Shown one piece after another: positions 6,545 to 56,790 of a DNA stretch of 58,165 bases. Position numbers and translations under genes: made by a program. Origin of the DNA: a virus (taxonomy: Duplodnaviria > Caudoviricetes); IMG/VR virus record IMGVR_UViG_3300031669_000034, positions 1 to 58,165 of that record. One strand, written 5' to 3'. The notes beneath the pieces were generated by a model. That model did no database searches, was not told the origin of the DNA, and saw only the letters and a program-made list of their open reading frames with translations. The first letter of the stretch is position 1; each line of letters begins with the position of its first letter.

Positions 6545-7575
6545 AATTTGCTTTTATTGCCGATATTCATTTATCCAAATATGCGCAAGATAAGCGTGAA
6601 GAAACAAGTAATTTACCAGAGCGATTGCATAGTATTAAGTCAGCTTTATATGAAGTAGCTGATTATTGTAAGCGAAACAATATTCATGTAATGATCATCG
6701 GTGGAGATATCCTTCATGGTAAATCTATTATCTATGCAATCGCTCAGGATATTATGTTACAATTCTTTGAAGATTTTAATAATGCAATCCAATTTTATGT
6801 TATCGACGGTAATCATGACTTATCTGGCAAAGGTGAAGATGTAGTATCTGCTCTACGTCCATTAGCTAATATACATGGAGTTGAGTGGATTAACCATACA
6901 AACAAACACAGAGTGATACAACCTGAAGGAATAATGTTTATTCCATATTCACATGATGTTGCCCAAGATGTTAAAAGTGCAAAATCAAGAATATTAATCT
7001 CACATTTCGGATTAAGTGAAGGAGTTTTAAACTCCGGAATGAGTATCATTCAAGATATATCTGTAAAGGATCTGATTGGAAAATATGAACTAGTCCTCCT
7101 TGGCCACTATCATAAACCTCAGTATATAAACCGTAGTGATATTCAACTGTATTATGTCGGGTCATTAATTCAATTAAATTGGGGCGAGAAGGGGGAAGAA
7201 AAAAGATTTTTGGTTGTTGAAACGGATACGCTTAAAGTTGATAGTATCCCAATAACTCAATATCGAAAACACATTGAAATTGAAATAACTCCCGATACAA
7301 AAGCAGCAGCTATCCTACAAGCGCAACAGGCAATAGATGGCGGAGATCATGTTAAGATAGTCATGAAAGAAACTGTCGATATGACGGACTATAAAGGCAA
7401 GTTCAACATAGTTGACAAAACTGAAAAGGATATAACAGATCGAGGAATCTCAAGCTCAATGTCTATGAGCGATATTCATACCCGTTATATGGAAATAAAA
7501 CAAATTCCAGAAGATCAAAGAGAACTTTATCTCAGAGAAGGTATGGAAATAATAAATGAATGTGAGGGCGAGTAA
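6541..7575 (+). CDS. sbcD: SbcD/Mre11-like nuclease (T4 gp47-like)
   Basis: ADIH, GGDILH, GNHD, SH and GHYH metallophosphoesterase motifs; adjacent to SbcC. Confidence 0.9.
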   Translation: MKFAFIADIHLSKYAQDKREETSNLPERLHSIKSALYEVADYCKRNNIHVMIIGGDILHGKSIIYAIAQDIMLQFFEDFNNAIQFYVIDGNHDLSGKGEDVVSALRPLANIHGVEWINHTNKHRVIQPEGIMFIPYSHDVAQDVKSAKSRILISHFGLSEGVLNSGMSIIQDISVKDLIGKYELVLLGHYHKPQYINRSDIQLYYVGSLIQLNWGEKGEEKRFLVVETDTLKVDSIPITQYRKHIEIEITPDTKAAAILQAQQAIDGGDHVKIVMKETVDMTDYKGKFNIVDKTEKDITDRGISSSMSMSDIHTRYMEIKQIPEDQRELYLREGMEIINECEGE

Positions 7576-7576
7576 T

Positions 7577-9766
7577 ATGAGAATAGCAGATTTCCAAGAA
7601 GTTGGAATGCAAAATTATGGACCTTATATCGAACCAATGGTACTTGAATTTAAACCTGATTCATTGGTTTTAATAACAGGCCCAAATGGAATTGGAAAAA
7701 CCATGGCCCTCGATGCAATTCCATTTACTCTATATGGAGTTACAAGTAAGGGGGCAAAAGGTGATGATGTGGTAAATAATGTAGTTGGGCGAAATTGTAA
7801 AACATGGGTCAAATTTACAATTGACGGAGTCCAATATATGGTTACACGTTATCATCAATATTCAAAACTCGGAAATACAGTAATTTTAAATGTTGGTGGT
7901 GTAGATACCAAACAAGGAGCTAAAGAAGTATTACCTGAAATTGAAAGAATCTTGTGTCCAAAAAAGACCTTCATGAATACTTTAATGTTTGGGCAAAAGG
8001 TTAAAGACTTCTTTACTGATCTCGGGGATGCTGATAAAAAAGAAATCTTTAGAATGATTTTAAATCTGGCTCTGTATTTGATGTATTATAAAAAGGCAGA
8101 TGAAAAGCTGAAAAAGATTAATATTGAACTGGACTCTTTAAATACAGAGGTTGGAATTCAAACTGGTTTATGGGAGAACTCTAAATCAGAAATCGAAATG
8201 CTACTTCAACAGCAAAAATATTTTAAATCGGAGAAAGAAACACAGCTGAAAGTTCTTCTTGAAGATCTTAAAATTAATGAAACTCTGCTTAAGCAATGGC
8301 AAAAGGATATTGAAGAAAGTCAATTAATTGATCTCAACACGGCAGGAGTAATTAAAGAAATATCTAATTTAGAATCTCAATTGAAAGAATCTCAATTTCA
8401 TAAAGAGTCAGAAATAAGAGACCTTACATCCAGAAAAGATCTTAAAGAAGCAGACATTAAAAGTCAAGTTGAAGTTGAAAAATCTAAAATAAAAGAAGAT
8501 ATAAGAAATACTTCTGATAATCTTAAACAGCAAGCGCAAAATCTAATAGATAAAATAACCGAGCTTGTTCAAATATCACAGGAGAAAAGACACCATGTTG
8601 AAATCTCAATCGAAAAACTCGAAGGAGAAAACAGATTTTATGAAGAACAAGCAACAGAAATCGACCAAAAAGTTATTCAAGCAGATACTAAACGATGTCC
8701 GCTGTGTAAGCAAACGGTTGATGGAGCTACTGCTAGACAATTACAGGAAACGATAGAAAAGTTCAAGAGTCAAATTGAAACCAATCAAATCTCTATGAAT
8801 GATATGACTCAAAGCATAAAGAGAATGAATAAAATCCTATTTACACAGAGTGAAGAGATAAATTCAGAACGAGATCATCTTATAAATCAAATTCAAGTTC
8901 TTGAATTGGATGAGAAAAAGAAACTCAAAGAGATTGATGTTCGCCTATATGATGCGCAAAAGAAATTGACTGAACTTCTTATTTCTGGGTCTAATGAGAT
9001 TGATAAAAAATATAAAGAGAAAGAAATGCAGTTAACAAGTAAAATTAATCATTTACTGAATGAAAAAGAAAAGATGGAAGAAGATCAAAATAAAATTAAT
9101 CAGATGAAACAGGCAATGGAAAAGGTTGTTGATCGTATTACTCAGTGCAAGATAAAAATTGATTTAAAGGAAAATGAGAAATATGATAAATCTCAACTCA
9201 ATTTCTATAAAAAGAAAGAATATGATCTTGGTGCAGAAATAGTTTCCCTTCAAAATAGGCAAGAAGAGGTTATGAAGAAGCATTATATCATTTCTTTCTG
9301 GAAAACAGGATATTCTTCATCTGGTATTCCATCAATGTTAATTGATGATTCTATTCCATTTATGAATGAACGAGTAGCATATTATCTTGAGAAATTAACA
9401 AATGGAAGATATATAGTTTCCTTTGATACTCTTGCAGAAACAAAAGCAGGAGATTTCAGAGATAAGATTTCTGTAAATGTTTTGGATACATTTACAAGAG
9501 CAAATTCTCGAGTCCAATTATCAGGCGGGCAAACGAGAATTATTGACATAGCAACAATTTTAACCCTCGGCGATCTTCAATCAAATATACACCACATTAA
9601 AATAAACATACTTATTTTCGATGAAGTCTTTGATAGTTTGGATGAGGAAAACATTGGATTTGTATCAAAGGTTTTGAATAAGTTAAAAGTTGGGAGATCG
9701 ATTTATTTAATTTCACATAGACACGAAGATCAGCTTGAAGCAGATGAGGTTTTAGCAATGGCATGA
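7577..9766 (+). CDS. sbcC: SbcC/Rad50-like SMC ATPase (T4 gp46-like)
   Basis: GPNGIGKT, coiled coils with CPLC zinc hook, LSGGQ signature, IFDEVFDSLD, ISH. Confidence 0.92.
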   Translation: MRIADFQEVGMQNYGPYIEPMVLEFKPDSLVLITGPNGIGKTMALDAIPFTLYGVTSKGAKGDDVVNNVVGRNCKTWVKFTIDGVQYMVTRYHQYSKLGNTVILNVGGVDTKQGAKEVLPEIERILCPKKTFMNTLMFGQKVKDFFTDLGDADKKEIFRMILNLALYLMYYKKADEKLKKINIELDSLNTEVGIQTGLWENSKSEIEMLLQQQKYFKSEKETQLKVLLEDLKINETLLKQWQKDIEESQLIDLNTAGVIKEISNLESQLKESQFHKESEIRDLTSRKDLKEADIKSQVEVEKSKIKEDIRNTSDNLKQQAQNLIDKITELVQISQEKRHHVEISIEKLEGENRFYEEQATEIDQKVIQADTKRCPLCKQTVDGATARQLQETIEKFKSQIETNQISMNDMTQSIKRMNKILFTQSEEINSERDHLINQIQVLELDEKKKLKEIDVRLYDAQKKLTELLISGSNEIDKKYKEKEMQLTSKINHLLNEKEKMEEDQNKINQMKQAMEKVVDRITQCKIKIDLKENEKYDKSQLNFYKKKEYDLGAEIVSLQNRQEEVMKKHYIISFWKTGYSSSGIPSMLIDDSIPFMNERVAYYLEKLTNGRYIVSFDTLAETKAGDFRDKISVNVLDTFTRANSRVQLSGGQTRIIDIATILTLGDLQSNIHHIKINILIFDEVFDSLDEENIGFVSKVLNKLKVGRSIYLISHRHEDQLEADEVLAMA

Positions 9767-10143
9767 AGATAAAAGCTGATTTTATAACCAACAGTTCATC
9801 TACCATGTTTGTAATTGAGATAGATAACAAGTTTCTTAGGAAGGATCTTGAAAAATTAATGAGCTTACATGTAGGAGAATCCTTAAGATTCTTCGATGAC
9901 AGAAGTAAATTAATTTCTTATACTCAACATCAACCTTGCGACTGGATAACCGAAATAACAGGAAGACCAATAGCAACTTGGAATATGGATTCTTGTTGTT
10001 TTGATGTTGCCTGTAATATATTAAAAGAAGGGAAATTTGTTATCTATCTTACTATGGAAAGAAACTATCCTGATCATATGGAAAGAGCATTGAGAATAAT
10101 TGAGGATAATGGTGGAATTATAAAACATAGGGATTATGATTAA
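9763..10143 (+). CDS. MKIKxDFVTNSSS-family protein 3
   Basis: MKIKADFITNSSSTMF. Confidence 0.75.
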   Translation: MKIKADFITNSSSTMFVIEIDNKFLRKDLEKLMSLHVGESLRFFDDRSKLISYTQHQPCDWITEITGRPIATWNMDSCCFDVACNILKEGKFVIYLTMERNYPDHMERALRIIEDNGGIIKHRDYD

Positions 10144-10796
10144 TGAAAATAAAAGCAGACTTTGTAACAAATAGCTCAAGCACGAGCTATACAATACAAT
10201 CGGTGGCCACAGGTCATATTGAGCCTTTGGGTAACTTAAAGAAATTAGAGACCCTGGCCAAAAAATTCAACTCTAAATATAATTTCATTTATGATGATTG
10301 TGCGCATTTTCAATATACTAAGGGGAATGCTGAATTAGAAAATGATCATCACACCATAAGTGTGAGTCTTTCGAATAAACGTATTTGGGGAAATATTACT
10401 ACCCCGACCACTATGAGAAATATTACTGTTTTACACATTTCTGTTGATAATCATCATGATTGGCATTACGACACCCTTGAATTAACAAAAGAAGTTATTG
10501 AAGAAGTATTTAGATTCTTCGATTTAAAGTCAAATTCAAACTTGAATTATGTTGCATTTCCTATTAGTTTTAAAGGAGATGGTTGGGATGGTGGGGATGC
10601 AAGTTGTGGCCCCCAAAGTAAATATGCATGGGTCAAAGATGTTTATGAGAATGAAAGTCGAATGGGTGTACTAACGATAATTGATAATAGGGTCATCCCA
10701 TATGTACTACCTCTAAAAGAAAATAGGTCATTCATGGAAGAGACAGCAAAATTCATAAATTCACAGGGGGTTTGTTTAGATGATAAGGATAGCTAA
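10143..10796 (+). CDS. MKIKxDFVTNSSS-family protein 4
   Basis: MKIKADFVTNSSSTSY. Confidence 0.75.
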   Translation: MKIKADFVTNSSSTSYTIQSVATGHIEPLGNLKKLETLAKKFNSKYNFIYDDCAHFQYTKGNAELENDHHTISVSLSNKRIWGNITTPTTMRNITVLHISVDNHHDWHYDTLELTKEVIEEVFRFFDLKSNSNLNYVAFPISFKGDGWDGGDASCGPQSKYAWVKDVYENESRMGVLTIIDNRVIPYVLPLKENRSFMEETAKFINSQGVCLDDKDS

Positions 10797-11829
10797 TTGG
10801 TTATTAACACGAAAATGCAATCTCAGGTGTGACTACTGCGCGATTGTAAAAAACTATGACGATAAACCTGGTAAATATCCTGATATGAAACATTATTATA
10901 AAAATGAAATGTCAACACATCAAGTTCTTGATGGACTCGATAAGTTGCAAACCCACAATCCAGAGATGTTTCATATCTTTTACGGGGGTGAACCCTTACT
11001 CAGAAAAGATCTACACGAAATCATAAGTCATTGTAATAAACAAAATATTTATTACACTATTATCTCGAATAATACCGAAGAGATAAGACCAATGATTTAT
11101 GACCTATGTGAGAAAGTCAAAGGAAAAATAAAAGGGTTCACCGCCTCCGTAGATCCAGTATTTCAGAATGAAATGGAATCTGGAAAAGATAGAGTCAAAA
11201 AAAGCGTACATGGTTTAGCTAATCTTGTGAATATGAAACAGTATGTAAACGATGTGGTTGCTGAGATTACAGCAATGAAACATAATTATATATACCTGTA
11301 CGATCTATTAAAAGAGCTGACCAAGTATGAAATAAACGGAGATATTACATTTATTGATATTTCTAAAAGCCCATACTATGATTTCTCAAATATTTCAGAT
11401 CCAAACTTGTTGGTGCATCAAACAGCACAGCTTGCGGATCAATTTAAGAAAATAAATAAAGATAAATCCCTAAATGTACACATGAAAGATGTACTGTTAA
11501 GAGGAATGTGGGATACACTTCCATCAAATATGAATTGTGAGATTGATAAACAATTACACAATATTTCAATTGATGCAGATGGAAGTATTCGTTTGTGTCT
11601 TAGAATAAGAGGGACTTTCACACCAGATACGGTAAATTTAAAAAATTTATTATATCAAGATGGGAAAATTTCTCCAATTGCACATGCTGCAATCAAAAGA
11701 GATAAAAAGGAGTATTGCAAATTGTGTAATCATACTTGTCATTTGATGAGTAAATATATAGAGGAAACAGAGTCCGGAGTAGATGATTTAGTTCATACGG
11801 ACGTAAGGGAGGGAACAATAAATGGTTGA
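10780..11829 (+). CDS. Radical SAM enzyme with C-terminal Cys cluster (SPASM/twitch-like)
   Basis: CNLRCDYC, GGEPLL, C...IDADGSIRLC...CKLCNHTC. Confidence 0.88.
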   Translation: MIRIANWLLTRKCNLRCDYCAIVKNYDDKPGKYPDMKHYYKNEMSTHQVLDGLDKLQTHNPEMFHIFYGGEPLLRKDLHEIISHCNKQNIYYTIISNNTEEIRPMIYDLCEKVKGKIKGFTASVDPVFQNEMESGKDRVKKSVHGLANLVNMKQYVNDVVAEITAMKHNYIYLYDLLKELTKYEINGDITFIDISKSPYYDFSNISDPNLLVHQTAQLADQFKKINKDKSLNVHMKDVLLRGMWDTLPSNMNCEIDKQLHNISIDADGSIRLCLRIRGTFTPDTVNLKNLLYQDGKISPIAHAAIKRDKKEYCKLCNHTCHLMSKYIEETESGVDDLVHTDVREGTING

Positions 11830-12175
11830 ACAAATAGATAGTGACGTCATTGTTAGTGCTGTTCAATTCTGGCAAAAAGTCTATACAGAAAAAATTGTTA
11901 AAATAAGATTTACAAAAAAAGATGGAAATGACAGAATAATGAGTGCAACTCTCGACTTCACAAAGATTCCCAAAGAAGATCATCCAAAAACTGTCAACAT
12001 TCAGAAGATTCTTTCTCTTATTCAAAAGAATCAAATCATGCACGTCTATGATTTAGATGCAAAAGGATGGAGATCGGTTCCATTTAACAGAGTAGAGTAT
12101 CTTCAAACATTAAAAGGAAAACGATTCTATGTCCAAAGTAAGAAAAAGGAAATGGAAAGTTTGACAAAGGAGTAA
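11822..12175 (+). CDS. WYL_2/Sm-like SH3 beta-barrel phage protein (DUF2693-like)
   Basis: FTKKDGxxRxMxATL...VYDLDAKGWRS pattern. Confidence 0.7.
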   Translation: MVEQIDSDVIVSAVQFWQKVYTEKIVKIRFTKKDGNDRIMSATLDFTKIPKEDHPKTVNIQKILSLIQKNQIMHVYDLDAKGWRSVPFNRVEYLQTLKGKRFYVQSKKKEMESLTKE

Positions 12176-12183
12176 GATAAGAA

Positions 12184-12567
12184 ATGACAATTCTTTCAGA
12201 CATTATTAAAGAACTCGGTACAGATAAACTTTCCGAGCAAGTTCATATGATTTGTAAAAAAATAAAAGATGAGGAAACAGAATCATTTGAATATATACAA
12301 TACGCCTCCGAAGGACCAAATATATTTCTTACTCTTGAAGTTCCGGGAAGAAATAAAAAAGAGGTTGGATTCATATCTTTAGAAAGAGAATCAGATGAAG
12401 TTTATTTATCTATATATTCAACTTTATTTCTAATAGATATAAAAAATGTAGAGCCAAAGGATGCTGCTCCACCAAAAAGACAAAGAGTTTGGGAAATCAA
12501 AGATCATCGAGCAGAGAAAATTTTAACAGAGTTTGCTAAACACGTGAAATATTTACGAGGTGAATAA
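12184..12567 (+). CDS. Hypothetical protein
   Basis: 127-aa ORF with AAGGAG upstream, abutting the next gene. Confidence 0.65.
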   Translation: MTILSDIIKELGTDKLSEQVHMICKKIKDEETESFEYIQYASEGPNIFLTLEVPGRNKKEVGFISLERESDEVYLSIYSTLFLIDIKNVEPKDAAPPKRQRVWEIKDHRAEKILTEFAKHVKYLRGE

Positions 12568-15174
12568 ATGCGCCCTGATTTGGTAGAAGAAATTAGAATC
12601 AATCCGAAGTATACGCAATACTTTTTATCTGAATTTGATAAAGATAAAGAAGAAGGAGATCCCAAAATTATCAAACGGACAATGTTTACAGCAGATTATC
12701 TTAGAAAACTGGGATCCCACTCAACTCTTGCTATGTTACCGCCAAATTGTCGATATATTGAAAGAACAGGAACCGGTGGTTATATAACAGTAATTGAAGA
12801 ACCTCCTGCTATGAGAACTATAAGCATTAGCAGAGATTTCTGGACAGAGAAAAATGAACTAGTGGAACAAGGAAAATGGGTGGAGTATGGATATAAAGGA
12901 TACAACGTTGACTTAAATATCCATAAGTTTAGTTTAGCATTTCCGTATGTAATCTTTATACTGGTGTTCGATAGGAGATTTTATCTATTAGAAGGAATGG
13001 TTTTTATGAGAATTCAACAGCTCATTGGAATGTCTGATTATTTATTAAAAACTCCTCTAAGCAATATATCCAGCGACCAAAGAATATGTTTTGGAGAGCA
13101 TGCAAATAACGGCGGGGCTAAACATTCTTTAAATCATGCGGTCCAAAATGCTATCATGGTTTTCTGGTCGGCTCATTTTAATACTGATTATACGTATAAC
13201 TGTTCAGATTATAAGAAAAAAGGTTCAGTATTTTCTAATATGTTAAAGTGGCAATATTATTCTAATACCAATCCAATGTTCATCTATGATGCTGACTGGA
13301 TTCGAATAGAAAGAACTTTTGGAGAATATATAAACTATACAAAGTGTAAAGAGTATGTAGGAGGAACTTATGCTGGAATGGATTATAAGGATGTTACTAA
13401 TTCTATTTTCTCTCAGGAAGATTCTGGAGTTGATATAAAAATCACACCGAGGGGATCCAGAAAGGCTAGACTGTTCTATGATGTTGCAAATGGAATCACT
13501 ATTGGGGATTACTTTATACATCAGGGGGATCCATTCCAATATAAAAATGGGGATATAGTATATATTGAATCTTTCGCCGGTTTTCAGGATGGGGGTCGTA
13601 TTCACTACATACAAGTTGACAAAAATGGGAAGAAGATTGTCATGAAGTTAACTTCAAAACTTCAAAACTATATTGCTGTATCAAATAAAGCATTAAGATA
13701 CGTATCAGAAGTAATTCTTCCTAATAAGACCAAAGTTAAAAGTGGCGATATTCTTATTGTTGAAGATAAGAATGGAACTTTTTATGCAAAAGTTGACTTC
13801 ATAAGGAATGCACGTGATGGGTCGATAGAAATAAAAATTGGATCTGATTATTATTTAGCTGATAAACTTAATGCTACCTTATTTAATATAACAGATCCAG
13901 AAGTTGATGGAATTAAGCTACAAAAGGGTAAAGAATATTTGATTATAACAGATCCGAGAGGAGGGTCAGTTCTGTCATCCGGAGACATATTAAAATATAC
14001 AGGAGTTTCAGTATCTGGGTCAACTAATATCAAATTTGATTTTCTTGGTGAGCGATATAGAGACTTAATCGGACCTATTACTTTTTCTTTACAGGTTAAT
14101 ACAACGCAAAAAGCTCCAAGAATTTATGAGCTCGATGCAGTTAGAGAGTTCGATGGGAGTTTTAGACTCGGAAAAAGTATATTCTGTATGACATCATCTC
14201 ATAACGCTAGGAGTTCAGGAATAACATATCCTGTAGCATGGGAACTTGCAGATGGTAATGGAGCTGTTTTTAATTCTTACTTTAGACTTGACAAACCAAC
14301 AACTCTTAATAGTCTCGTAAAAGATGACAGATTCTTCTTGCCAGGTATTCATTATGATATAGATTTTAGAGTCGGCGATAAGGTTGTTGTTGCTAACTGG
14401 GGAACTCCAACTGAGATGTTAAAGATTAAAGAGATCGCAGGATTTTCTTTTGTTAACAACGAAAGTAGTAAACGTGATGATCTATATTTTATTTTAACCG
14501 ATAGGGAAGGAAAACTATCCAAACACAAATATATTGATGGATATAAGTCAGTATGTCATATAGGAAGTGTCAGAAAAATAACGAACAGATTTAACGGAGT
14601 TTCAGCAGGTACTAAAATAATTTCTGATACAGCAGGTATTTACGGATTTCCAAAGAAAGATGTAAATATTATTATAGGATTTATTACTGATACGGGTGGA
14701 GATGATCCTCTTGTTCTTTGCTCAAATTGCCAAACCCTTTGGTTTAGTGATATTATTGCAAACTTTAAACGAGTAAGTGTGAAATCTGCAAAATGGAAAA
14801 CTCTCAGTCATTCGCCTATCGACTTGAGTAAAATCAAACCTCAAGCCGGAGATATTATCAACGGTACAGATAAATACAGAATGAATGAGGGGTATATGAT
14901 GGCCCATATGCCTGAATACTCAAATGTTAGAGCGACAATTCTATCATACTATACTGGTTATCCCGAAGCTTATGGAATGGATAGACAATTTAGTAAAGAG
15001 TATATCTATAACTGTATTCCAAATCCAAGGCTCTCTCCGAGTCAACTTAAAGAATTTGGAACGATTAGAGGGTTCTCTAACTTTCACGGACTCTTCTTTG
15101 CTAGCCAAAAATCAGGTGTAAGATTTATCAACCAACCAGGGAGGATTATAAATGTTTCCAGTAGTGCTGAATGA
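12568..15174 (+). CDS. Large protein with N-terminal Prok-E2_D-like domain and beta-rich (SH3/KOW-like) C-terminal repeats
   Basis: FSLAFPYVIF...LLKTPLSNISSDQRICFG...FWSAHFNTDY; later repeated I/V-x-x-GD motifs (IHQGD, VKSGD, FRVGD, PQAGD); overlaps the JAB gene. Confidence 0.65.
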   Translation: MRPDLVEEIRINPKYTQYFLSEFDKDKEEGDPKIIKRTMFTADYLRKLGSHSTLAMLPPNCRYIERTGTGGYITVIEEPPAMRTISISRDFWTEKNELVEQGKWVEYGYKGYNVDLNIHKFSLAFPYVIFILVFDRRFYLLEGMVFMRIQQLIGMSDYLLKTPLSNISSDQRICFGEHANNGGAKHSLNHAVQNAIMVFWSAHFNTDYTYNCSDYKKKGSVFSNMLKWQYYSNTNPMFIYDADWIRIERTFGEYINYTKCKEYVGGTYAGMDYKDVTNSIFSQEDSGVDIKITPRGSRKARLFYDVANGITIGDYFIHQGDPFQYKNGDIVYIESFAGFQDGGRIHYIQVDKNGKKIVMKLTSKLQNYIAVSNKALRYVSEVILPNKTKVKSGDILIVEDKNGTFYAKVDFIRNARDGSIEIKIGSDYYLADKLNATLFNITDPEVDGIKLQKGKEYLIITDPRGGSVLSSGDILKYTGVSVSGSTNIKFDFLGERYRDLIGPITFSLQVNTTQKAPRIYELDAVREFDGSFRLGKSIFCMTSSHNARSSGITYPVAWELADGNGAVFNSYFRLDKPTTLNSLVKDDRFFLPGIHYDIDFRVGDKVVVANWGTPTEMLKIKEIAGFSFVNNESSKRDDLYFILTDREGKLSKHKYIDGYKSVCHIGSVRKITNRFNGVSAGTKIISDTAGIYGFPKKDVNIIIGFITDTGGDDPLVLCSNCQTLWFSDIIANFKRVSVKSAKWKTLSHSPIDLSKIKPQAGDIINGTDKYRMNEGYMMAHMPEYSNVRATILSYYTGYPEAYGMDRQFSKEYIYNCIPNPRLSPSQLKEFGTIRGFSNFHGLFFASQKSGVRFINQPGRIINVSSSAE

Positions 15175-16945
15175 TGGGCAAAATGAAATGCCCAAAGATG
15201 ATATTTATTATGTTATTGCGAAAGAGGGAGTTTATCTTAAGAAGAAATTGGGGGTTATGGAAAGTCTTGCTCCAGTAAAACAGATCTCAACTCTTCAAAG
15301 CATTACAGCTACGGCCACAATGCATATTGAAAAAATTCCTGGTCCTAAATTTGCAAAGATTATCGAGTTCTTTAGAGAAGTTTATAAAGAATACTATGGA
15401 GAAGCAATTGTCCTATTATTTTATGACGAAGAGAAAAAGACCTATTTTATCATGCCTCCACATCAAAAAGTATCAGGCGGATCATGCGATTACAACAGAG
15501 GTATAACCGTAGATGGTTATACTATGATTGGTACAATTCATAGTCATGCCGCAATGTCTGCATTTCATTCTGGAGTTGACGATAAAGATGAGGAAGGGTT
15601 TGACGGACTTCATATTACAATTGGAAATGTGAGGGACGAAGAAGTCAGTATTTCAGCATCAATTGTTGCTAATGGTCATCGGATAATGGTTGATCCGAGA
15701 GATTATGTTGAACAACTGCAACTAACTCAAGACATTGATGAAGATACTACCGGGGCAACTACTAAAGTCTATGAATGGAAAGATGGTAAACTACAAGAGA
15801 ATCTAAAGAAAACGAATCGTTATGCTTACAATTATCGAAGATTTGATAAGCGCTATGTAGTAACAGTAACTGACCACCAAAAACGATTTAATCAGAAATG
15901 GATGAAGGTGGTTGAAAAAGGGCACTACGTTCACAAAGGTTGGAATCGTGGAGTTGGGCGTGGATATGGAGCAGACTGGTATACTGGCAATGGATGGGGG
16001 TATGGATTTGATGCAGACGCATGGAATCAAATGAATCAAGGATTTCAAAGAAGACTTCCAGGTTCATTTGTCGTCCATGGAAAACCAGATCCGAGAAACG
16101 TTGGACCGTACAAAACACAAGGCATAGTCTTTCCTCCTCATAAAGATGAAGATGAAGATGTAAATCATTGTCAGAATTGTGTGCATAGAGATGACAAGTT
16201 GGGTTGGGCTCTTGAGCAATTCACAGAGGAAGCAGAAGATGAACCGGATGAAGAAGATGTGATTGATAATTTTGCATCTCGGGATGATTATGACAAAATG
16301 TTTATGGATGGTAATATTGCATGCCAGAATTGTTTTGAAACTTATCACGGTCCATCCTATCAAGCATGCCCAACGTGTGGTGCACCAAATATTTCTAAGA
16401 TGAAAGCATCACAAGATCCTATAGCAGGTCAAAGATTTAGTTGCCCAACTTGTACAAACGAGTTCGATCATGAGGGAGAAGATGAATGCCCTTTTTGCCA
16501 CACAGAACTAGACTTTACCGAGTTCAGAGAAGCCGCATTAGTAGAAGACAAATCAGACGAAGAGGGAGAACCTTCGATCGGAAAAGATATTGAACCCGGA
16601 AAATGGTATATATGTAACCTTTGTACCACTATATTTGAAGCTAAATCTGTTATAAATGATTGCCATTGCCCGAGTTGTGGCAAATATATGTTGGAAGAGT
16701 ACAATTGTACTCAATATAATATAGAGGATGAAAGAACATCAATTGCCGATAAAGATTCCGGTAAATTGATGGAGGATTCTAAACGCGACATTCTTCTGTT
16801 AGCCGCTGAAGCCGATAAATATCTAGAAAGAATCCCTGATCCACAAAAACTCGAAACTCCTTTATCAACGCGTGTTCAAAAAACATCTCGTATGTCTATC
16901 AAAGAGATGTTCAAAAGGACATTTGGGAAGGAGAGAACTAAATGA
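15152..16945 (+). CDS. JAB/MPN+ metalloprotease (deubiquitinase-like) with C-terminal zinc ribbons
   Basis: GEAIVLL...IGTIHSHAAMSAFHSGVDD = E...HxH-x7-S-x2-D JAMM motif; seven CxxC motifs in the acidic C-terminal half. Confidence 0.85.
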   Translation: MFPVVLNDGQNEMPKDDIYYVIAKEGVYLKKKLGVMESLAPVKQISTLQSITATATMHIEKIPGPKFAKIIEFFREVYKEYYGEAIVLLFYDEEKKTYFIMPPHQKVSGGSCDYNRGITVDGYTMIGTIHSHAAMSAFHSGVDDKDEEGFDGLHITIGNVRDEEVSISASIVANGHRIMVDPRDYVEQLQLTQDIDEDTTGATTKVYEWKDGKLQENLKKTNRYAYNYRRFDKRYVVTVTDHQKRFNQKWMKVVEKGHYVHKGWNRGVGRGYGADWYTGNGWGYGFDADAWNQMNQGFQRRLPGSFVVHGKPDPRNVGPYKTQGIVFPPHKDEDEDVNHCQNCVHRDDKLGWALEQFTEEAEDEPDEEDVIDNFASRDDYDKMFMDGNIACQNCFETYHGPSYQACPTCGAPNISKMKASQDPIAGQRFSCPTCTNEFDHEGEDECPFCHTELDFTEFREAALVEDKSDEEGEPSIGKDIEPGKWYICNLCTTIFEAKSVINDCHCPSCGKYMLEEYNCTQYNIEDERTSIADKDSGKLMEDSKRDILLLAAEADKYLERIPDPQKLETPLSTRVQKTSRMSIKEMFKRTFGKERTK

Positions 16946-17643
16946 ATAAACTATCTATTGTTGTAGTGGGCCTCGGTGGTGTAGGTTCTATTTTAATAGA
17001 ACGTCTCGGTCGCTTTCTGAATTATGGCGATTATGAAGCAAATATGCTTCTAGTAGACGGTGATGAATACGAGGTCAAAAACTATCAAAGGCAAGAGTTC
17101 AATCAAATGGGGAATAAATCTGACGTGAAAGCAACTGAGCTACAAATAAAATTTCCTAAAATTGTGTTGGACTCGTATGATGCCTATGTAAACGAAACAA
17201 ATACTGCTGAGATCATCAGAGAGGGAGACATAGTTTTTCTCTGTGTTGATAATCACAAAACCAGAAACATCATATCCAATTATTGTATGCAATTAAAAGA
17301 TATTACTTTGATTTCTGGTGGGAATGAGTTGACAGATGGAAATGTGCAAATTTATATCAGACAAGGAGGTGTAGACTTAACACCTGATCTCTGTGCATAC
17401 CATCCTGAAATTGCCAATCCCGAAGATAAGTTACCCGAAGAATTGTCATGTGAAGAAAGAGCCAATGCAGATCCTCAGTTGTATTTCTGTAATCTTGGCG
17501 TAGCTACGTTAATGTGTTGGGCCTTTTACAAATCAATCATAAAAGGTCAGATTGATCAGCAGTCTGAAGTATATTTCGATATTCTTCAAATGTCTGCCAA
17601 TGCACAAACTCGAATTGTAAAAACTAAAGAAGGAGAAAGCTAA
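16942..17643 (+). CDS. ThiF/E1-like adenylyltransferase (PRTRC ThiF-like)
   Basis: VVVGLGGVGS, DGDEYEVKNYQRQ, K, CVDN, LSCEE (candidate catalytic Cys). Confidence 0.88.
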   Translation: MNKLSIVVVGLGGVGSILIERLGRFLNYGDYEANMLLVDGDEYEVKNYQRQEFNQMGNKSDVKATELQIKFPKIVLDSYDAYVNETNTAEIIREGDIVFLCVDNHKTRNIISNYCMQLKDITLISGGNELTDGNVQIYIRQGGVDLTPDLCAYHPEIANPEDKLPEELSCEERANADPQLYFCNLGVATLMCWAFYKSIIKGQIDQQSEVYFDILQMSANAQTRIVKTKEGES

Positions 17644-17645
17644 AA

Positions 17646-18125
17646 ATGGTACGTAGAAAAACTTATACAAGAGATCAATTGGAAGCAATGAATGCTAAAG
17701 ACCTCAAAAGTATGGCATTTCATTCACTAGGACTCAGCGGGCTGAGCAAGAAACCCAAAGATGTTGTTGTAGATGCAGTCATTGCCTATCAAGACGGTGG
17801 TAAAGCATCTATCGCACCAGGAAAGGCAGCATCTTCCGGCCCCATTACCGGACTGAACTTCACTGGTCAAAGCAGCCTAACCAATCCAGGCGCTTCATTC
17901 GGTAACAAAACCACAACCACCATTCAAGTATCATGTGGTGCATCTTCAGGAGCCTTTCCGGTTCAGGGAAAAACTGTTCGTGAAGTCGGTGAGTTTTTGA
18001 GAGAAGTTCTCAATGTGAGTCAACTTTCAACCGGTTTGGTAAATGGAAAAGAAGTCGACTCCGGTTATATTTTGAAATCCGGTGATCGTCTTGAATTCCT
18101 GAAACCAGCAGGGCGTAAGGGATAG
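17646..18125 (+). CDS. Ubiquitin-like protein with N-terminal Rho-N/HeH-like domain
   Basis: C-terminal beta-grasp pattern VNGKEV...YILKSGDRLEFLKPAGRKG*; N-terminal LEAMNAKDLKSMA..LGLSGLSKKPKDVVVDAV. Confidence 0.78.
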   Translation: MVRRKTYTRDQLEAMNAKDLKSMAFHSLGLSGLSKKPKDVVVDAVIAYQDGGKASIAPGKAASSGPITGLNFTGQSSLTNPGASFGNKTTTTIQVSCGASSGAFPVQGKTVREVGEFLREVLNVSQLSTGLVNGKEVDSGYILKSGDRLEFLKPAGRKG

Positions 18126-18138
18126 ACTATGCTTACGA

Positions 18139-18162
18139 TGGGAGCCTCATATGGGGCTCCCA
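18139..18162 (+). terminator. GC-rich hairpin after the Ubl gene (terminator or processing stem)
   Basis: TGGGAGCCTC-ATAT-GGGGCTCCCA inverted repeat; no strong U-tract. Confidence 0.5.
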
Positions 18163-18185
18163 ACTTCAATCTAAGGGGTTTAATA

Positions 18186-18722
18186 ATGAACGAAAATATT
18201 GAAAAATTATTTAATGAAAATGGCATAGATAAAGTTGCGTTTTACTATAAAAGTACTCCCTTAGTTGACAATGCATATACTACTTGCATACTTGTCAATA
18301 CAGAAAAGGGACGGATTGAATCAAGGGGTATCGCCATATGCTCCATGCGAGATACGTTCAACAAAAACAAGGGTAAAAATAAAGCGTTTGGAAGAGCTAT
18401 TGAAGCTGTGGTACGAAAGATTAATTCTGGAAAAATTAACCCTTGTGGGCGTGATTGCGAAGGAGTACGCAGACAATTCAAAATCAAAACCGAACAGGAT
18501 CAAACAAAGTTTGAAAGCGCCATTACTGAGCTTAATACTTTGCATCCTGAATTGGAAGTTGTAATTATTAATGATGGTTCTAAGAACCATACAAAATATT
18601 GTTTGAATATTCCAGCAAGCTATCCAATCCGAGTTGCCAATAAAGACTTTAAATATAAGTCTCAGTTTAGGCCAAACCCAGCCGGAAGTGAAGAATCGAA
18701 ACTATTAGACAAGGGTATATAA
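18186..18722 (+). CDS. Hypothetical phage protein with GxAxCSxxDxFxKxxGxxxAxxRA motif
   Basis: Start re-assigned to ATG 18186, after AAGGGG. Confidence 0.65.
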   Translation: MNENIEKLFNENGIDKVAFYYKSTPLVDNAYTTCILVNTEKGRIESRGIAICSMRDTFNKNKGKNKAFGRAIEAVVRKINSGKINPCGRDCEGVRRQFKIKTEQDQTKFESAITELNTLHPELEVVIINDGSKNHTKYCLNIPASYPIRVANKDFKYKSQFRPNPAGSEESKLLDKGI

Positions 18723-18735
18723 GGCAAGGCAAAAA

Positions 18736-18759
18736 GGGAGGAGAGGTAACTTTCCTCCC
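18736..18759. terminator. Intergenic hairpin with GTAA tetraloop
   Basis: GGGAGGAGAG-GTAA-CTTTCCTCCC preceded by an A-run (a U-tract on the minus strand). Confidence 0.5.
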
Positions 18760-18786
18760 AATAACTCGAAAGGAGACTAGCCAAAC

Positions 18787-19644
18787 GTGGCGTACAGAAG
18801 TATAACTATAATAGGAATAGGAACACTGGGAGGATTTATTGCAGAATCTCTTTCAAATCTGGATGGAGTAGAGGAACTAATTATAGTAGACCACGATATA
18901 GTTGAAAAAAAGAATCTAAGGAATTCTATTTATAGACAGATTGATGTTGATCTATTTAAAGTAGATGCTCTTGGAGATATATTATCTATAAATAGAGATA
19001 TTAATGTTAAACAATTTCCAATAAAATTTGAAGAAGGAACAACAAAACTCCCACACTCAGATTTGGTTTTAGATTGCAGAGATTACACTTATGACAGAGG
19101 ATCATATCTTGATGCACGACTTTATATCTCATCTAGATATCTTATGGTCGATTGTCGAAAGAATGTAAAATATGACAATCCAGTTGAAGGTAAATATCTA
19201 GAAGCTCTAACCAAAGATGATTTACGATACGCTTCAACGATGGTAGCAATGTTACTTCATAGTAATACAATTGCATCATTGATTGATGTAGGATCAGTTC
19301 AAAAATATGAACTTGATTATGTAACAAGGATTGACAGTTGCTCATATGATATTTTATATGATGCATCACCTGGAAATGATAAATTTGTCAACCTGCCTGC
19401 AAAAATTATTCCCATTTTAGATCTTAATAGAGAATATGATCTAAATGTATTTGTTGGAAGTAAGAATCTACCATTAACTGAAAGAATTATTCCTAAAGCA
19501 TCTTTAAAAGATGGAAATGATTTAATAATCAATTTAGCATCTGTTACAAGTTTACAATGCAATTTTAATCAATATCTTGTATCTCCATTTAAGGAAGGTG
19601 GAAAAGTTTATATTGAACTTATTCCTGAAACTGGAGCTGCATAA
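18787..19644 (+). CDS. Second ThiF/E1-like protein, with a C-terminal extension ending IELIPETGAA
   Basis: GTG start after AAGGAG; IIGIGTLGG, DHDIVEKKNLRNS, K, DCRD. Confidence 0.8.
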   Translation: MAYRSITIIGIGTLGGFIAESLSNLDGVEELIIVDHDIVEKKNLRNSIYRQIDVDLFKVDALGDILSINRDINVKQFPIKFEEGTTKLPHSDLVLDCRDYTYDRGSYLDARLYISSRYLMVDCRKNVKYDNPVEGKYLEALTKDDLRYASTMVAMLLHSNTIASLIDVGSVQKYELDYVTRIDSCSYDILYDASPGNDKFVNLPAKIIPILDLNREYDLNVFVGSKNLPLTERIIPKASLKDGNDLIINLASVTSLQCNFNQYLVSPFKEGGKVYIELIPETGAA

Positions 19645-19982
19645 TGAAATTAACCCGCATTGCAGTAAAAAATTTAATTGTCCCAAGACGATTGATTTTT
19701 AGAAATGAATTCTATAAAATATTAGATTACCCAAACAAATATATAATCAAAGGATATACTGTTATCTTACTTGATGATAAAATTGATGAGTTAGAAATTA
19801 GGGACTCACATCCCAATGCAAACCCAAGGACTGGAGAATTTTGTATACCAAACACATTACGAAACTTTCCATTAAACGATGAAACGAAAAACATGATTCA
19901 TAACATCTTAAGTTGCTTTAACTTAGATAATTGCTACTTCACTCCTTGGAACGAAATTCAATATAGAAAACAAGAGGTGTGA
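19644..19982 (+). CDS. Minimal E2/UBC-like protein
   Basis: SHPNANPRTGEFCIP matches the UBC active-site pattern HPN-x-G-x-x-C; coupled to ThiF-2. Confidence 0.55.
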   Translation: MKLTRIAVKNLIVPRRLIFRNEFYKILDYPNKYIIKGYTVILLDDKIDELEIRDSHPNANPRTGEFCIPNTLRNFPLNDETKNMIHNILSCFNLDNCYFTPWNEIQYRKQEV

Positions 19983-56606: not shown

Positions 56607-56783
56607 ATGAAAAGATATAAGATTGAATGTGAAAACGTTACAACTGGGGAAGTTCGGGAAACTGAGATAACCGTAATAACAAGCATGGCTTCAGTGGTTG
56701 ACATGCTAGGAAAATATGGTTGGGGAATCACAAAGTATCACCCAATCAACGATTCCGAAACGATTGAGACCCAAACTGCATAA
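56607..56783 (+). CDS. Small hypothetical protein, 58 aa, not in the ORF track
   Basis: GGAGGT RBS; MKRYKIECENVTTGEVRETEITVITSMASVVDMLGKYGWGITKYHPINDSETIETQTA. Confidence 0.7.
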   Translation: MKRYKIECENVTTGEVRETEITVITSMASVVDMLGKYGWGITKYHPINDSETIETQTA

Positions 56784-56790
56784 GGAGGTA

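Follow-up and report, generated by a model that had tools for sequence, protein, structure and literature searches.

A core gene module of an uncultured phage clade predicted to encode a ubiquitin-like conjugation cascade

The window, that is the whole stretch of DNA analysed here, comprises 58,165 nucleotides (positions 1 to 58,165 of IMG/VR virus record IMGVR_UViG_3300031669_000034). The source element is a phage, since the window encodes a terminase, sheath, baseplate and its own RNA polymerase. Immediately upstream of rpoC/rpoB, between repair genes and the RNA polymerase genes and 15-35 kb from the structural genes, lie the following features:

12184..12567, + strand: p127, a small conserved protein abutting E2L; candidate module member
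12568..15174, + strand: E2L, 868 aa, UBC/Prok-E2_D-like in its N-terminal domain, with small beta-barrels in series towards the C-terminus
12730..13347, + strand: UBC-like domain of E2L (residues about 55-260), with invariant Asn166 and Cys174 in ..NIxxxQxICFG..
13417..15147, + strand: string of SH3/Tudor/KOW/BAH-like barrels of E2L (residues about 284-860, about 580 aa), from fold matches
15152..16945, + strand: JAB/JAMM metalloprotease, 597 aa, domain at residues about 1-190, JAMM codons at 15539-15580
16942..17643, + strand: E1, a ThiF-type adenylating enzyme of 233 aa
17646..18125, + strand: Ubl, 159 aa, with a Rho_N/HeH-like N-domain (about 8-50), a linker, a beta-grasp domain (about 88-159) and a terminal Gly
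18129..18722, + strand: p197, an accessory gene between hairpins
18139-18162, + strand: GC-rich hairpin, 10-bp stem and 4-nt loop, directly after the Ubl stop
18787..19644, + strand: ThiF2, a second, degenerate E1-like protein
19644..19982, + strand: p112, a minimal E2 (UBC-like) candidate of 112 aa whose start overlaps the ThiF2 stop

Four plus-strand genes that overlap or abut form the core set (12568-18125): E2L and JAB overlap by 23 nt, JAB and E1 by 4 nt, and a gap of 2 nt separates E1 from Ubl. An earlier note, made from the sequence alone, had described these as a complete phage-encoded operon, placed upstream of the RNA polymerase, for an E2_D-like protein, a JAB protease, an E1 and a Gly-terminated beta-grasp protein. 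The open reading frames (868, 597, 233 and 159 aa), their overlaps and gap, the phage genes and the position of rpoC/rpoB directly downstream agree with that description, and the four identifications are borne out at the family level. The description of a complete operon was too narrow: ThiF2 (18787-19644) and p112 (19644-19982), 0.7 kb downstream, are conserved together with the four genes and, on this comparative evidence, also belong to the module. A family scan covered 54 of the 60 window ORFs of at least 100 aa, the other six being antisense or overlapping ORFs inside larger genes. Among the 54 there was no ParB-like protein, as the earlier note had remarked, and no rhodanese, cysteine desulfurase or sulfur-acceptor enzyme; the scan of the window ORFs also revealed no CD-NTase or effector, and no E3 of the RING or HECT type was recognised. 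A radical SAM gene and genes of the deazaguanine pathway (PTPS, FolE2) are also present in the window. A literature search found no paper describing such a module.

Synteny in related phages had been suggested as a check. In all 57 related viral contigs from IMG/VR the module is collinear and lies beside the phage RNA polymerase; E1 is missing in four loci, JAB in five and E2L in six, in every case at a contig end. Neighbouring genes overlap or are separated by at most 10 nt at most junctions (JAB to E1, 50/52 loci; E2L to JAB, 42/46; ThiF2 to p112, 48/49), and the conservation of the module about equals that of the RNA polymerase. Collinearity next to the RNA polymerase in all 57 contigs indicates that the block is a core module, not an accessory island, of an uncultured clade of large, myovirus-type jumbo phages; an accessory or defence-type island was rejected on this ground. 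Parts of every module gene are represented, at 90-99% identity, among contigs of four RNA-seq libraries from as many studies, which is consistent with transcription of these genes.

The hairpin that the earlier note placed after the set is a general feature of these loci. Of the 57 loci, 53 have a strong hairpin (dG <= -15, median -24.4) after the Ubl stop; after other genes one occurs in 0-8 loci, and among random windows of 65 nt in 33 of 570. It is conserved in position, not in sequence, and no T-run follows it in the window; it is likely a terminator, an attenuator or an mRNA-stabilising stem. The adjacent p197 occurs in only 19 of 57 loci and matches only PHROGs families without an assigned function. 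Its true start is probably the ATG at 18187, which has AAGGGG 8 nt upstream, and the dG after its stop is -25.8. On the other side of the module, p127 is present in 42 of 57 loci with a median gap to E2L of 0 nt (at most 10 nt in 41 of 42); family profile scans gave no match for it and an Atlas search yielded weak leads only.

E2L has more than 164 full-length homologues in metagenomes. The candidate catalytic cysteine noted earlier within DQRICFG is Cys174 (codon 13087-13089), invariant in the alignments of 30 of 30 full-length homologues and 31 of 31 N-domains, and Asn166 is likewise invariant among aligned homologues. Pfam Prok-E2_D is matched by 27 of 30 family members (best E 3.3e-8), the window protein itself remaining below the cut-off (E 0.004; 17.4 bits against 25). 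In the predicted model (pLDDT 82), all five VIA-align matches spanning residues 55-257 are E2 enzymes, with 114-129 aa aligned: 3bzh_A (Z 5.4, 118 aa), 1zdn_A (5.2), 8pmq_E (5.2), 1yf9_C (5.0) and 5a31_Q (5.0). Foldseek with the whole model retrieves SPT5 KOW arrays (E 8e-6), UBE2O (7un3_A, E 4.6e-4) and tandem Agenet/Tudor domains. Within the barrel region, VIA relates residues 377-440 to BAH/Tudor/PWWP barrels (Z 9.3-5) and residues 673-750 to SH3-like folds (Z about 5), and an invariant Cys718 lies in a CxxC motif. The association of a UBC-like domain with SH3-like barrels recalls E2/E3 hybrids of the UBE2O type, although domain order and number differ.

The second E2-like protein, p112, was found in 49 of 57 loci by tblastn; the other eight carry an HPN..C ORF in the same position, one of them with uncertain bounds. 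Its motif is His56-Pro57-Asn58 ... Cys67, of which His, Asn and Cys are invariant in 30 of 30 members. With the model (pLDDT 95, pTM 0.84), all Foldseek matches listed are E2 enzymes at weak E values (0.15-0.5), as are all 50 matches listed by VIA against the PDB (Z 4.0-4.8). In a wide, Foldseek-independent search the best match is 1yrv_A (Z 4.9) and most of the top 50 are E2/UEV folds; the bacterial BubB, CdnG-E2 and Cap2 (7to3_A, Z 2.9) figure in that top 50. As in canonical UBC E2s, the protein has the HPN...Cys motif and a UBC core running from beta-meander to helix 2; their N-terminal helix and the helices at their C-terminus are absent, model residues 1-108 corresponding to E2 residues about 30-140. 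None of 30 members matches a Pfam E2 family, the p112 profile retrieves E2s of the PDB at no better than E 0.29 and 0.91, and no sequence homology of either p112 or E2L to canonical E2s or UBE2O is detectable by Pfam.

It could be argued that these E2-like parts are not catalytic, E2L being a scaffold or a binder of nucleic acid or RNA polymerase with a dead, UEV-like domain, p112 being structural, and only E1, JAB and Ubl cooperating. The fold scores of both domains are indeed weak (Z <=5.4), in a range that, according to the tool's own note, common arrangements can reach; p112 has no Pfam E2 match, and E2L consists mainly of reader-type barrels. To our knowledge, UEV-type proteins lack the active-site cysteine. 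Here, Asn and Cys at canonical spacing are invariant in both families at identities down to 22-25%, and this non-catalytic reading appears highly improbable. The two families show no mutual profile similarity.

The E1 gene, named as ThiF/E1 in the earlier note, matches Pfam ThiF above the cut-off (E 3e-22). It is intact in GLGGxG, Asp39, Arg50-Gln51, Lys63, Asp103-Asn104 and Arg108; all these adenylation residues and the candidate catalytic Cys170 (EMSCEEL) are invariant in 31 of 31 homologues. Its closest solved structures are MoeB, UBA5, Uba4, ThiF and BubCD (E 4e-8 to 1e-5), and NCBIfam and the PDB place it nearest to the sulfur-carrier E1s (ThiF/MoeB). A tblastn search of 50,697 phage records gave only four weak matches, in three Bacillus phages and one faecal contig. 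ThiF2 is present in 57 of 57 loci, with a Pfam ThiF match limited to its N-terminal 100 aa (E 4.6e-13). Its alignment retains the nucleotide-binding loop, Asp35, Lys58 and Asp96, without the Arg-Gln finger. Its C-terminal domain, which has no assigned fold, ends in a conserved ETGAA (41 of 57 loci).

In principle, such an E1 could adenylate the glycine for a non-protein acceptor, the outcome being a peptidyl-nucleotide or, where a small molecule, lipid or nucleic acid is the partner, an amide or ester, as for MccB or Atg8 lipidation, with the UBC-like proteins as carriers. The PDB relatives of E1 include MccB and BubCD (E 1e-5 to 2e-5), whose chemistries differ, and the available part of the Bub preprint describes oxyester, not thioester, intermediates. 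The HeH domain of Ubl and the location between repair and transcription genes would also suit a nucleic-acid-linked acceptor. The invariant Asn of the HPN-type motif, which in canonical E2s serves isopeptide formation, argues against this proposal, as do the invariant Cys, not Ser, at the E1 and E2 sites and the failure to find an acceptor-specific enzyme. It is considered very unlikely.

Ubl has 366 homologues. The window protein ends in KPAGRKG, with the free terminal Gly pointed out previously; all 30 homologues aligned share this Gly and the stretch LEFLKPAG without change (consensus LEFLKPAGxKG). Its C-terminal 70 aa match beta-grasp families (TGS in 30/30 members, ThiS in 22/30, Ub-Mut7C in 15/30) and Rho_N is matched by 19 of 30 members (Pfam); against ThiS the window protein scores 16.1 bits, below the cut-off of 22.5. 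Among 120 C-termini, 53 stop at the Gly and 64 have exactly one further residue (C 59, F 2, Y 1, L 1, Q 1). Such a one-residue extension has the pattern of a Ubl precursor and, found in about half of the homologues, implies trimming by the JAB. In mean column identity, Ubl (68%) exceeds E1 (55%), E2L (48%), ThiF2 (39%), p112 (32%) and JAB (30%); to be the best-conserved component is what would be expected of a modifier with many partners.

The JAB protein varies in length among relatives (314-627 aa); its C-terminal region is variable and contains many CxxC zinc ribbons. As the earlier note had it, the JAMM motif is intact: all 31 homologues aligned keep Glu84, His130, His132, Ser140 and Asp143. 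The window protein misses the Prok-JAB cut-off (E 1.5e-4; 22.1 bits against 25) and has zinc-ribbon matches too.

These data also bear on a sulfur-carrier function, in which E1 would make a Ubl thiocarboxylate that passes its sulfur on, whether to a small molecule, a cofactor or a base of tRNA or DNA; the JAB would merely trim the carrier, and no protein would be tagged. In mycobacterial cysteine synthesis a JAB enzyme cleaves a carrier-Cys adduct, and the QbsE carrier is trimmed; the extra Cys past the Gly resembles both. Such a function would suit the best relatives of E1 (ThiF, MoeB, Uba4), the ThiS matches of Ubl, its single terminal Gly, which ThiS-like carriers can have, and the radical SAM, PTPS and FolE2 genes of the window. 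It leaves no use for two conserved UBC-like proteins with invariant Asn and Cys, none of the sulfur-relay enzymes sought was among the 54 scanned ORFs, and Ubl, whose N-domain is of a nucleic-acid-binding type, is better conserved than the enzymes of the module. On balance, a sulfur carrier is unlikely.

Another proposal, already raised in the earlier note, is counter-defence: the enzymes would disturb host Ubl immunity (CBASS Cap2/Cap3, Bil), the JAB stripping conjugates, for example, or a decoy Ubl absorbing E1 and E2. Host systems of the same families do act against phages, and both E1-like proteins match the Cap2-type 'E1-E2' models of PADLOC (E1, E 5.5e-8; ThiF2, E 8e-11). However, small size, patchy occurrence and fast evolution are usual for anti-defence genes, whereas here six or seven genes keep every catalytic residue, collinear in all 57 contigs and with RNA polymerase-like conservation. 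Moreover, the Ubl profile found only two contigs in 185,579 species genomes, both MAG contigs (10 and 35 kb), and therefore no host counterpart is evident. Counter-defence thus seems quite unlikely.

The same four kinds of protein are grouped in PRTRC and mobile-element operons (Iyer, Burroughs and Aravind 2006), and the available text of PMC1779556 predicts that such E1/E2/JAB/Ubl sets modify and de-modify proteins. Of the parallel drawn in the earlier note, the protein kinds stand: JAB resembles PRTRC_A across positions 26-187 of 192, almost the full profile (E 2.5e-12), E1 resembles PRTRC_ThiF (E 4.3e-10, 11-227 of 245) and the E2 belongs, by its domain, to the Prok-E2_D type. The relationship is remote only, with scores far under the curated cut-offs (46.7 against 101.8 bits and 39.3 against 144.75 bits, respectively) and neither a ParB-like nor another PRTRC protein. 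PRTRC sets reside in plasmids and ICEs, in contrast to a lytic-type phage core; the present set further differs in the barrels, about 580 aa in all, joined to its E2, in the HeH domain of Ubl, and in having a second E1-like gene as well as a mini-E2 of HPN-Cys type.

Bil, a host anti-phage system of ubiquitination-like type, uses the same protein families, and its Type II form, BilABCD, has a conserved Ubl Gly followed by up to nine residues that the JAB enzyme BilC trims, according to the available part of PMC10557695. Bil-type Ubls with added N-terminal domains are also described there and in the accessible text of PMC11601603. BilABCD resembles the module in its separate Ubl, E2, JAB and E1 genes and in residues past the Gly. 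In the available descriptions, it combines inactive and active adenylation domains in a single multidomain E1, where the module has two separate ThiF-size proteins, and BilB is of the CEHH type without HPN, whereas p112 has HPN. Bil was set apart by these descriptions, the PADLOC copy (2023) having given Cap2-type matches only. The module may thus be a remote relative of PRTRC/Bil-type systems that fails their membership cut-offs.

CBASS, with Cap2 (an E2-E1 fusion) and Cap3 (a JAB), likewise uses E1, E2 and JAB chemistry in phage-bacterium conflict; here E1 and E2 are unfused, a dedicated Ubl exists, and the window has no CD-NTase or effector. In CBASS the conjugated part is a protein's own G/A-ended C-terminal tail, which may offer a lead, by analogy, for the ETGAA tail of ThiF2. 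Among viruses, Nidhogg, a tailed virus of Asgard archaea, has three ThiF/E1-like genes, for which ubiquitin-type modification and hijacking of host Ub have been proposed (Rambo et al., 10.1101/2021.07.29.454249). The available part of that report describes no viral E2, JAB or Ubl, and on this description Nidhogg is set apart from the whole set seen here. Lambda/T1 TAPI is a phage beta-grasp Ubl with a C-terminal Gly, encoded beside the JAB peptidase TAPK; as the available part of PMC1779556 presents them, they have no E1 or E2, lie among tail genes and have an assembly role, whereas the present module lies between repair and RNA polymerase genes.

Given these homologies, catalytic motifs that are both intact and invariant, a residue encoded beyond the Gly and synteny across the clade, the module probably encodes a viral Ubl conjugation cascade inherited as a core module of the phage clade. 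We infer its chemical steps, the sequence of transfers, the part played by ThiF2 and the nature of the targets as follows. The JAB would expose the terminal Gly of Ubl where one extra residue is encoded, and probably also takes the tag off targets. E1 (233 aa) would adenylate this Gly and probably accept Ubl on Cys170, from which Ubl could pass to the active-site Cys of p112, to that of E2L (Asn166/Cys174), or to both in relay. E2L may pick targets through its SH3/Tudor/KOW-like barrels, in the manner of an E2/E3 hybrid, and the tag would carry its Rho_N/HeH nucleic-acid-binding domain onto its conjugation partner. ThiF2, coupled to p112, might be a non-catalytic or E2-docking partner of E1.

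This phage and every relative that could be examined carry a full ubiquitin-like gene set: an activating enzyme, two conjugating-enzyme-like proteins, a protease and a tag. Such a set suggests that viruses of this clade may themselves tag proteins during infection.

The four genes that the earlier note had taken for a complete ubiquitin-like (Ubl) conjugation operon, in the order E2-JAB-E1-Ubl, correspond exactly to open reading frames (ORFs) running from 12568 to 18125. They lie on the plus strand, in a run of genes that leaves no intergenic gap, neighbours abutting or overlapping, and that extends at least from 7556 to 18125. All four components are present at this place, and the claim of completeness has to be revised because two conserved genes downstream, ThiF2 and p112, had been left out: the kind of system, a Ubl conjugation set, had been recognised and its extent drawn too narrowly. 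Together, the genes of this module probably encode a viral Ubl conjugation cascade.

Genes of the module and of the RNA polymerase downstream (aa, amino acids)
12568-15174, plus strand: E2L, UBC/Prok-E2_D-like protein, 868 aa
15152-16945, plus strand: JAB, JAMM metalloprotease, 597 aa
16942-17643, plus strand: E1, ThiF-type adenylating enzyme, 233 aa
17646-18125, plus strand: Ubl, putative ubiquitin-like tag, 159 aa
18787-19644: ThiF2, second E1-like protein (Pfam ThiF, E 4.6e-13)
19644-19982: p112, 112-aa candidate mini-E2 with an HPN...Cys motif, its start lying on the ThiF2 stop codon
20438-23155: RNA polymerase beta', a single, shortened subunit of 905 aa
23357-26359: RNA polymerase beta, a single, shortened subunit of 1000 aa

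A scan of IMG/VR with a Ubl profile provided 57 related loci on contigs of 17-248 kb; a scan of viral contigs seeded with single-sequence E2L patterns confirmed nothing. Synteny in related phages had been suggested as a check, and the module is collinear in all 57 loci, with the same gene order in 57/57: sbcC, radical SAM, WYL_2, p127 (a small protein), E2L, JAB, E1, Ubl, in some loci p197, then ThiF2, p112, rpoC and rpoB. ThiF2, RpoC and RpoB are each found in 57/57 loci, and E1, JAB and E2L in 53, 52 and 51, respectively, each absence falling at a contig end. The p112 gene was recovered by tblastn in 49/57 loci, and the other eight carry an ORF with an HPN..C motif at the same place, its bounds being unclear in one. 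The gap between ThiF2 and p112 is no longer than 10 nt in 48/49 loci. Identity to the proteins of the window is 41-77% for Ubl, 43-79% for E1, 55-77% for RpoC and 22-51% for E2L.

The Ubl tag, for which 366 homologues were collected, exceeds all other proteins of the set in conservation (mean column identity 68%). Its last 70 residues match beta-grasp families at E values up to 0.1 (TGS in 30/30 members, ThiS in 22/30, Ub-Mut7C in 15/30), the window protein itself remaining below the ThiS cut-off (16.1 bits; cut-off 22.5), and Rho_N matches the first 45 residues in 19/30 members. These family matches suggest a tag composed of a HeH-type domain, a linker and a beta-grasp. A profile search of the PDB returned no beta-grasp match for Ubl and a single unrelated one, the Dun1 FHA domain (E 0.043). 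The C-terminus, LEFLKPAGxKG, is invariant, and the free terminal glycine previously pointed out (Gly159) is conserved in 30/30 members. Among 120 homologues, 53 stop at this glycine and 64 continue for exactly one extra residue, mostly cysteine; this C-terminal pattern is typical of Ubl precursors. In type II BilABCD, up to nine residues follow the conserved glycine and are removed by the JAB enzyme, according to excerpts of the published description (PMC10557695).

The JAB protein does possess the intact JAMM motif ascribed to it: E84, H130, H132, S140 and D143, which form the pattern Glu ... His-x-His-x7-Ser-x2-Asp, are invariant in 31/31 sequences. Despite this motif, it misses the cut-off of Pfam Prok-JAB (22.1 bits; cut-off 25). 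The match to NCBIfam PRTRC_A takes in almost all of the profile (E 2.5e-12). In its C-terminal half, JAB is rich in CxxC zinc ribbons and varies among relatives, the proteins ranging from 314 to 627 aa.

Two proteins of the module resemble E2 enzymes. In p112, His56, Asn58 and Cys67 are invariant in the alignment and Pro57 is shared by at least 90% of sequences; the HPN motif and the cysteine occur in 49/49 p112 ORFs and in the 8 further loci. We take this HPN...Cys arrangement to be the canonical E2 signature, with one residue more between Asn and Cys than in UbcH5. The AlphaFold model of p112 (pLDDT 95, pTM 0.84) has no Foldseek match at E up to 0.001, and all matches listed, with E values of 0.15-0.5, are E2 enzymes. 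The same is true of all 50 matches listed in a VIA search, with weak scores (Z 4.0-4.8, 72-94 residues aligned). A search independent of Foldseek is led by E2/UEV folds, including the bacterial BubB, CdnG-E2 and Cap2 (best Z 4.9). It is the motif and the fold taken together, the fold scores being weak, that lead us to call p112 E2-like. Pfam E2 families match 0/30 members at E up to 1. The family comprises 348 cluster representatives, almost all of them stand-alone proteins of 100-160 aa; in the 10 longer ones tested (173-305 aa), the additional parts contain no Pfam domain.

For the second of these proteins, E2L, metagenomes yield more than 164 full-length homologues, with lengths of about 860 aa. 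Prok-E2_D (PF14460) matches 27/30 aligned homologues at E up to 0.01 (best 3.3e-8), the window protein itself scoring below the gathering cut-off (17.4 bits; cut-off 25), and a precomputed PF14460 label is attached to a minority of the entries for the 120 homologues listed. The candidate catalytic cysteine that had been picked out in DQRICFG (Cys174) is invariant in the alignments of this family, as is Asn166, 8 residues upstream. The E2L model (pLDDT 82) shows a beta-meander with helices at residues 55-260, followed by a long run of small beta-barrels. Only five matches span model residues 55-257; all are E2 enzymes, with weak scores (Z 5.0-5.4, 114-129 residues aligned). A profile of this N-terminal domain gives 0 matches in the PDB at E up to 10, and hhalign detects no similarity between the domain and p112. 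Residues 377-440 resemble barrels of the BAH, Tudor, PWWP and KOW kinds, with Z reaching 9.3 over about 61 residues; the matches include the RNA-polymerase-binding Tudor domains of UvrD/PcrA and the KOW domains of SPT5 (Z 5.4-6.3). Another part of the model, residues 673-750, matches SH3-like folds. When the complete model is searched with Foldseek, SPT5 comes first and the E2/E3 hybrid UBE2O is also listed (E 4.6e-4). By its predicted structure, E2L resembles a fusion of an E2 with a reader array. RNA polymerase as the partner read by this array is a lead that comes from the generic fold and the gene position only.

Among the window's own four proteins E2L, JAB, E1 and Ubl, E1 alone exceeds a curated cut-off (Pfam ThiF, PF00899: E 3e-22, 79.3 bits; gathering cut-off 28.1). 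Enzymes of the ThiF/MoeB type rely on a Gly-rich nucleotide loop, an Asp after strand 2, an Arg-Gln finger, a Lys and a Mg-binding Asp. In the alignment of E1, the Gly loop, Asp39, Arg50-Gln51, Lys63, Asp103-Asn104 and Arg108 are intact, and the adenylation residues are invariant in 31/31 sequences. Cys170 (EMSCEEL), placed by the alignment in a loop after the core strands, is also invariant and is a candidate for the catalytic residue that thioester chemistry requires in the crossover region.

ThiF2 also passes the PF00899 cut-off (49.3 bits; cut-off 28.1), over its N-terminal 100 aa only. In the alignment, its nucleotide loop, Asp35, Lys58 and Asp96 are retained and the Arg-Gln finger is missing, with Asn-Ser at the position that we assign to the finger by analogy with residue roles in MoeB. 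Its extreme C-terminus is conserved, ETGAA being found in 41/57 loci. The degenerate finger, the translational coupling to p112 and the conserved tail are the basis for proposing that ThiF2 is a non-catalytic or E2-docking partner of E1. Long fused ThiF2 forms of 500-2000 aa were not found. A copy of Ubl at the end of ThiF2 is an unsupported idea: hhalign of its C-terminal 95 aa with the Ubl beta-grasp gives a Prob of 0.1, that is, no similarity. An ESM Atlas search with the C-terminal part of ThiF2, like that with p127, returned unnamed clusters or weak DUF1801-type leads only. Simple ORF calling gives E1 ORFs of 267-289 aa in three loci (L043, L045 and L049) and E2L ORFs of 1094 and 969 aa in two others (L048 and L051), which may be real extensions or start/stop artefacts; in L043, the E1 ORF continues into a low-complexity C-terminal tail.

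The closest relatives of E1 are sulfur-carrier E1s, and this proximity favours another reading, in which the module is devoted to sulfur transfer. Transfer of the tag to amines is preferred because the module has two UBC-like proteins in which an Asn and a Cys are invariant, the tag is conserved in a ubiquitin-like manner, and the 54 ORFs scanned in the window include no sulfurtransferase partner. The weak fold scores of the E2-like domains must be counted against a conjugation cascade. In such a cascade, E1 would adenylate the terminal glycine of Ubl, which would then be transferred to the cysteine of p112, of E2L, or of both. Targets would be selected by E2L, the tag would bring a nucleic-acid-binding domain to them, and JAB would be responsible for trimming and de-conjugation.

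The hairpin reported 3' of Ubl (18139-18162, following the Ubl stop) has a 10-bp GC-rich stem and has counterparts in the related loci. When the 65 nt after the Ubl stop are folded, dG is -15 kcal/mol or lower in 53/57 loci (median -24.4), with stems that differ in sequence. The same threshold is reached in 0 to 8 loci when the sequence behind the stop codons of eight other block genes is folded, and by 33/570 random windows, which argues that the hairpin, which marks the E2L-JAB-E1-Ubl unit on its 3' side, is conserved. Since the hairpin has no T-run in the window, it is not called as a terminator in a consensus scan, which gave 8 terminator-like sites (5.6 expected); a sigma-70 consensus scan gave 65 promoter-like sites (47.5 expected). 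A second strong hairpin lies at 18722-18787 (dG -25.8 for the 65 nt 3' of the p197 stop), with a minus-strand call at 18759-18741. Given the strong folds after both the Ubl and the p197 stops, p197 has a hairpin on either side. This accessory gene, present in only 19/57 relatives, looks like a moron inserted between Ubl and ThiF2. Contigs from four RNA libraries cover pieces of all module genes, which is consistent with transcription of the module and is not proof of it; coverage of the region is incomplete, and where contigs end around the hairpin varies from run to run.

The window (G+C about 33%) belongs to a large tailed phage and also encodes a topoisomerase, a helicase, SbcCD-like proteins, a T4-type terminase, tail sheath and baseplate proteins and deazaguanine-pathway genes, and contains no tRNA gene. 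Its RNA polymerase is of the bacterial type with two large subunits, which share only about 28% identity with bacterial and Rhizobium-phage RpoC.

Other genes of the window
3663-4118: PTPS (QueD-like)
9763-10143 and 10143-10796: adjacent paralogous ORFs of 126 and 217 aa, both starting with MKIKADF(I/V)TNSSST
10780-11829: radical SAM protein, best NCBIfam match a viperin-family model (E 3e-13, far below its cut-off)
11822-12175: WYL_2/Sm-like barrel protein, directly upstream of the module
26599-27483: FolE2 GTP cyclohydrolase
50736-51755: second radical SAM/SPASM protein
52130-52609: CreA-family protein (E 6e-22), within the structural region
56716-57159: protein whose N-terminus carries a type IV pilin-like methylation motif (E 6e-8), within the structural region

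The radical SAM gene at 10780-11829 and the WYL_2 gene are each kept in 46/57 loci. The paralogous ORFs have no family match in Pfam, PHROGs or NCBIfam, and are present in 23/57 (126 aa) and 2/57 (217 aa) related loci. PTPS, FolE2 and the second radical SAM/SPASM protein suggest that the phage has a deazaguanine-type pathway for modifying nucleotides or DNA. The CreA-family and pilin-like proteins hint at a Gram-negative bacterial host. On the grounds of the bacterial-type RNA polymerase, the CreA-like protein and the pilin-type signal, the host is assumed, with no claim of proof, to be a bacterium.

Relatives occur on contigs of up to 248-255 kb, and a homologous set is found on one 255-kb contig filed under an archaeal MAG. 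Ubl is present in only 2 contigs among 185,579 species genomes. In 50,697 phage records, neither the Ubl protein nor the module DNA has a match, so that no cultured phage record contains Ubl, and E1 has 4 weak matches only. Index shares point to near-identical DNA in metagenomes that several studies obtained from soil, sediment and aquatic sites.

To our knowledge, the bacterial E1/E2/JAB/Ubl sets described so far are host anti-phage defences (CBASS, Bil, Bub) or unexplained plasmid cargo. The nearest families, described in PMC1779556, are mobile-element E1/E2/JAB/Ubl operons of the PRTRC and 'class 6' kinds. They are followed by the host defences BilABCD and CBASS Cap2/Cap3. By analogy, the module may work like these sets and appears to belong to none of them. 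The parallel with PRTRC (NCBIfam TIGR03735-TIGR03742) proposed in the earlier note holds for the protein families, since PRTRC_A and PRTRC_ThiF match, and not for membership, as both cut-offs are missed widely (46.7 for a cut-off of 101.8 and 39.3 for one of 144.75, respectively). The other PRTRC models have no match at E up to 0.1 among 12 neighbouring proteins. The ParB-like component, PRTRC_F, had been reported missing, and family scans of 54 ORFs of this terminase-bearing window indeed reveal no ParB. The module also differs from type II CBASS, in which E2 and E1 are fused, whereas here they are separate genes; window scans detected no CD-NTase, nucleotidyltransferase or effector family, which places it outside that type. 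The likeness to BilABCD is drawn from the published description only (PMC10557695); a PADLOC (2023) search gave Cap2-type matches only.

Within the literature searched, the only viral precedent is that of the Asgard-archaeal Nidhogg viruses, whose three E1-like genes have been proposed, according to excerpts of the preprint, to hijack a host system (bioRxiv 10.1101/2021.07.29.454249). Searches of open-access full texts revealed no description of a phage-encoded E1/E2/JAB/Ubl set, and excerpts of a jumbo-phage genomic overview (PMC7824862) and of a 2026 jumbo-phage review (PMC13282480) make no mention of one. The new features of the module are its location on the virus side, its core conservation, the presence of two E1-like and two E2-like proteins, the E2-reader fusion and the HeH-Ubl.

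A bolder reading, which we regard as unlikely to hold in all its parts jointly, is that a jumbo-phage clade runs its own eukaryote-style multi-enzyme ubiquitination cascade in its core infection programme. Eukaryotic E1s dock E2 by a ubiquitin-fold domain; here, E1 would consist of two subunits, the active ThiF and a degenerate ThiF2 with an E2-docking C-terminal domain. The E2 function would be divided between a canonical HPN-Cys mini-E2 and a giant E2/E3 hybrid, in which Tudor/KOW-type barrels, of the kind that binds RNA polymerase, would read the targets. The tag would be a DNA-binding HeH-Ubl, and host or phage transcription and nucleoid proteins would be covalently marked or tethered during takeover. 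If this reading is true, the module would be the first Ubl system known from a virus of bacteria, and an independent E1 heterodimer/E2/E3-like division of labour outside eukaryotes and archaea.

The module is about as tightly conserved as the phage RNA polymerase, in a clade widespread in sediment, soil and aquatic settings. Should it conjugate, it would provide a compact set of separable E1, mini-E2 and Ubl that could be studied or put to use as a tool, a natural example of an E2 fused to reader domains, and a test bed for the origin of E1 heterodimers and of the E2/E3 division of labour. Protein tagging would then serve viruses as a takeover tool in bacteria, just as eukaryotic viruses use it.
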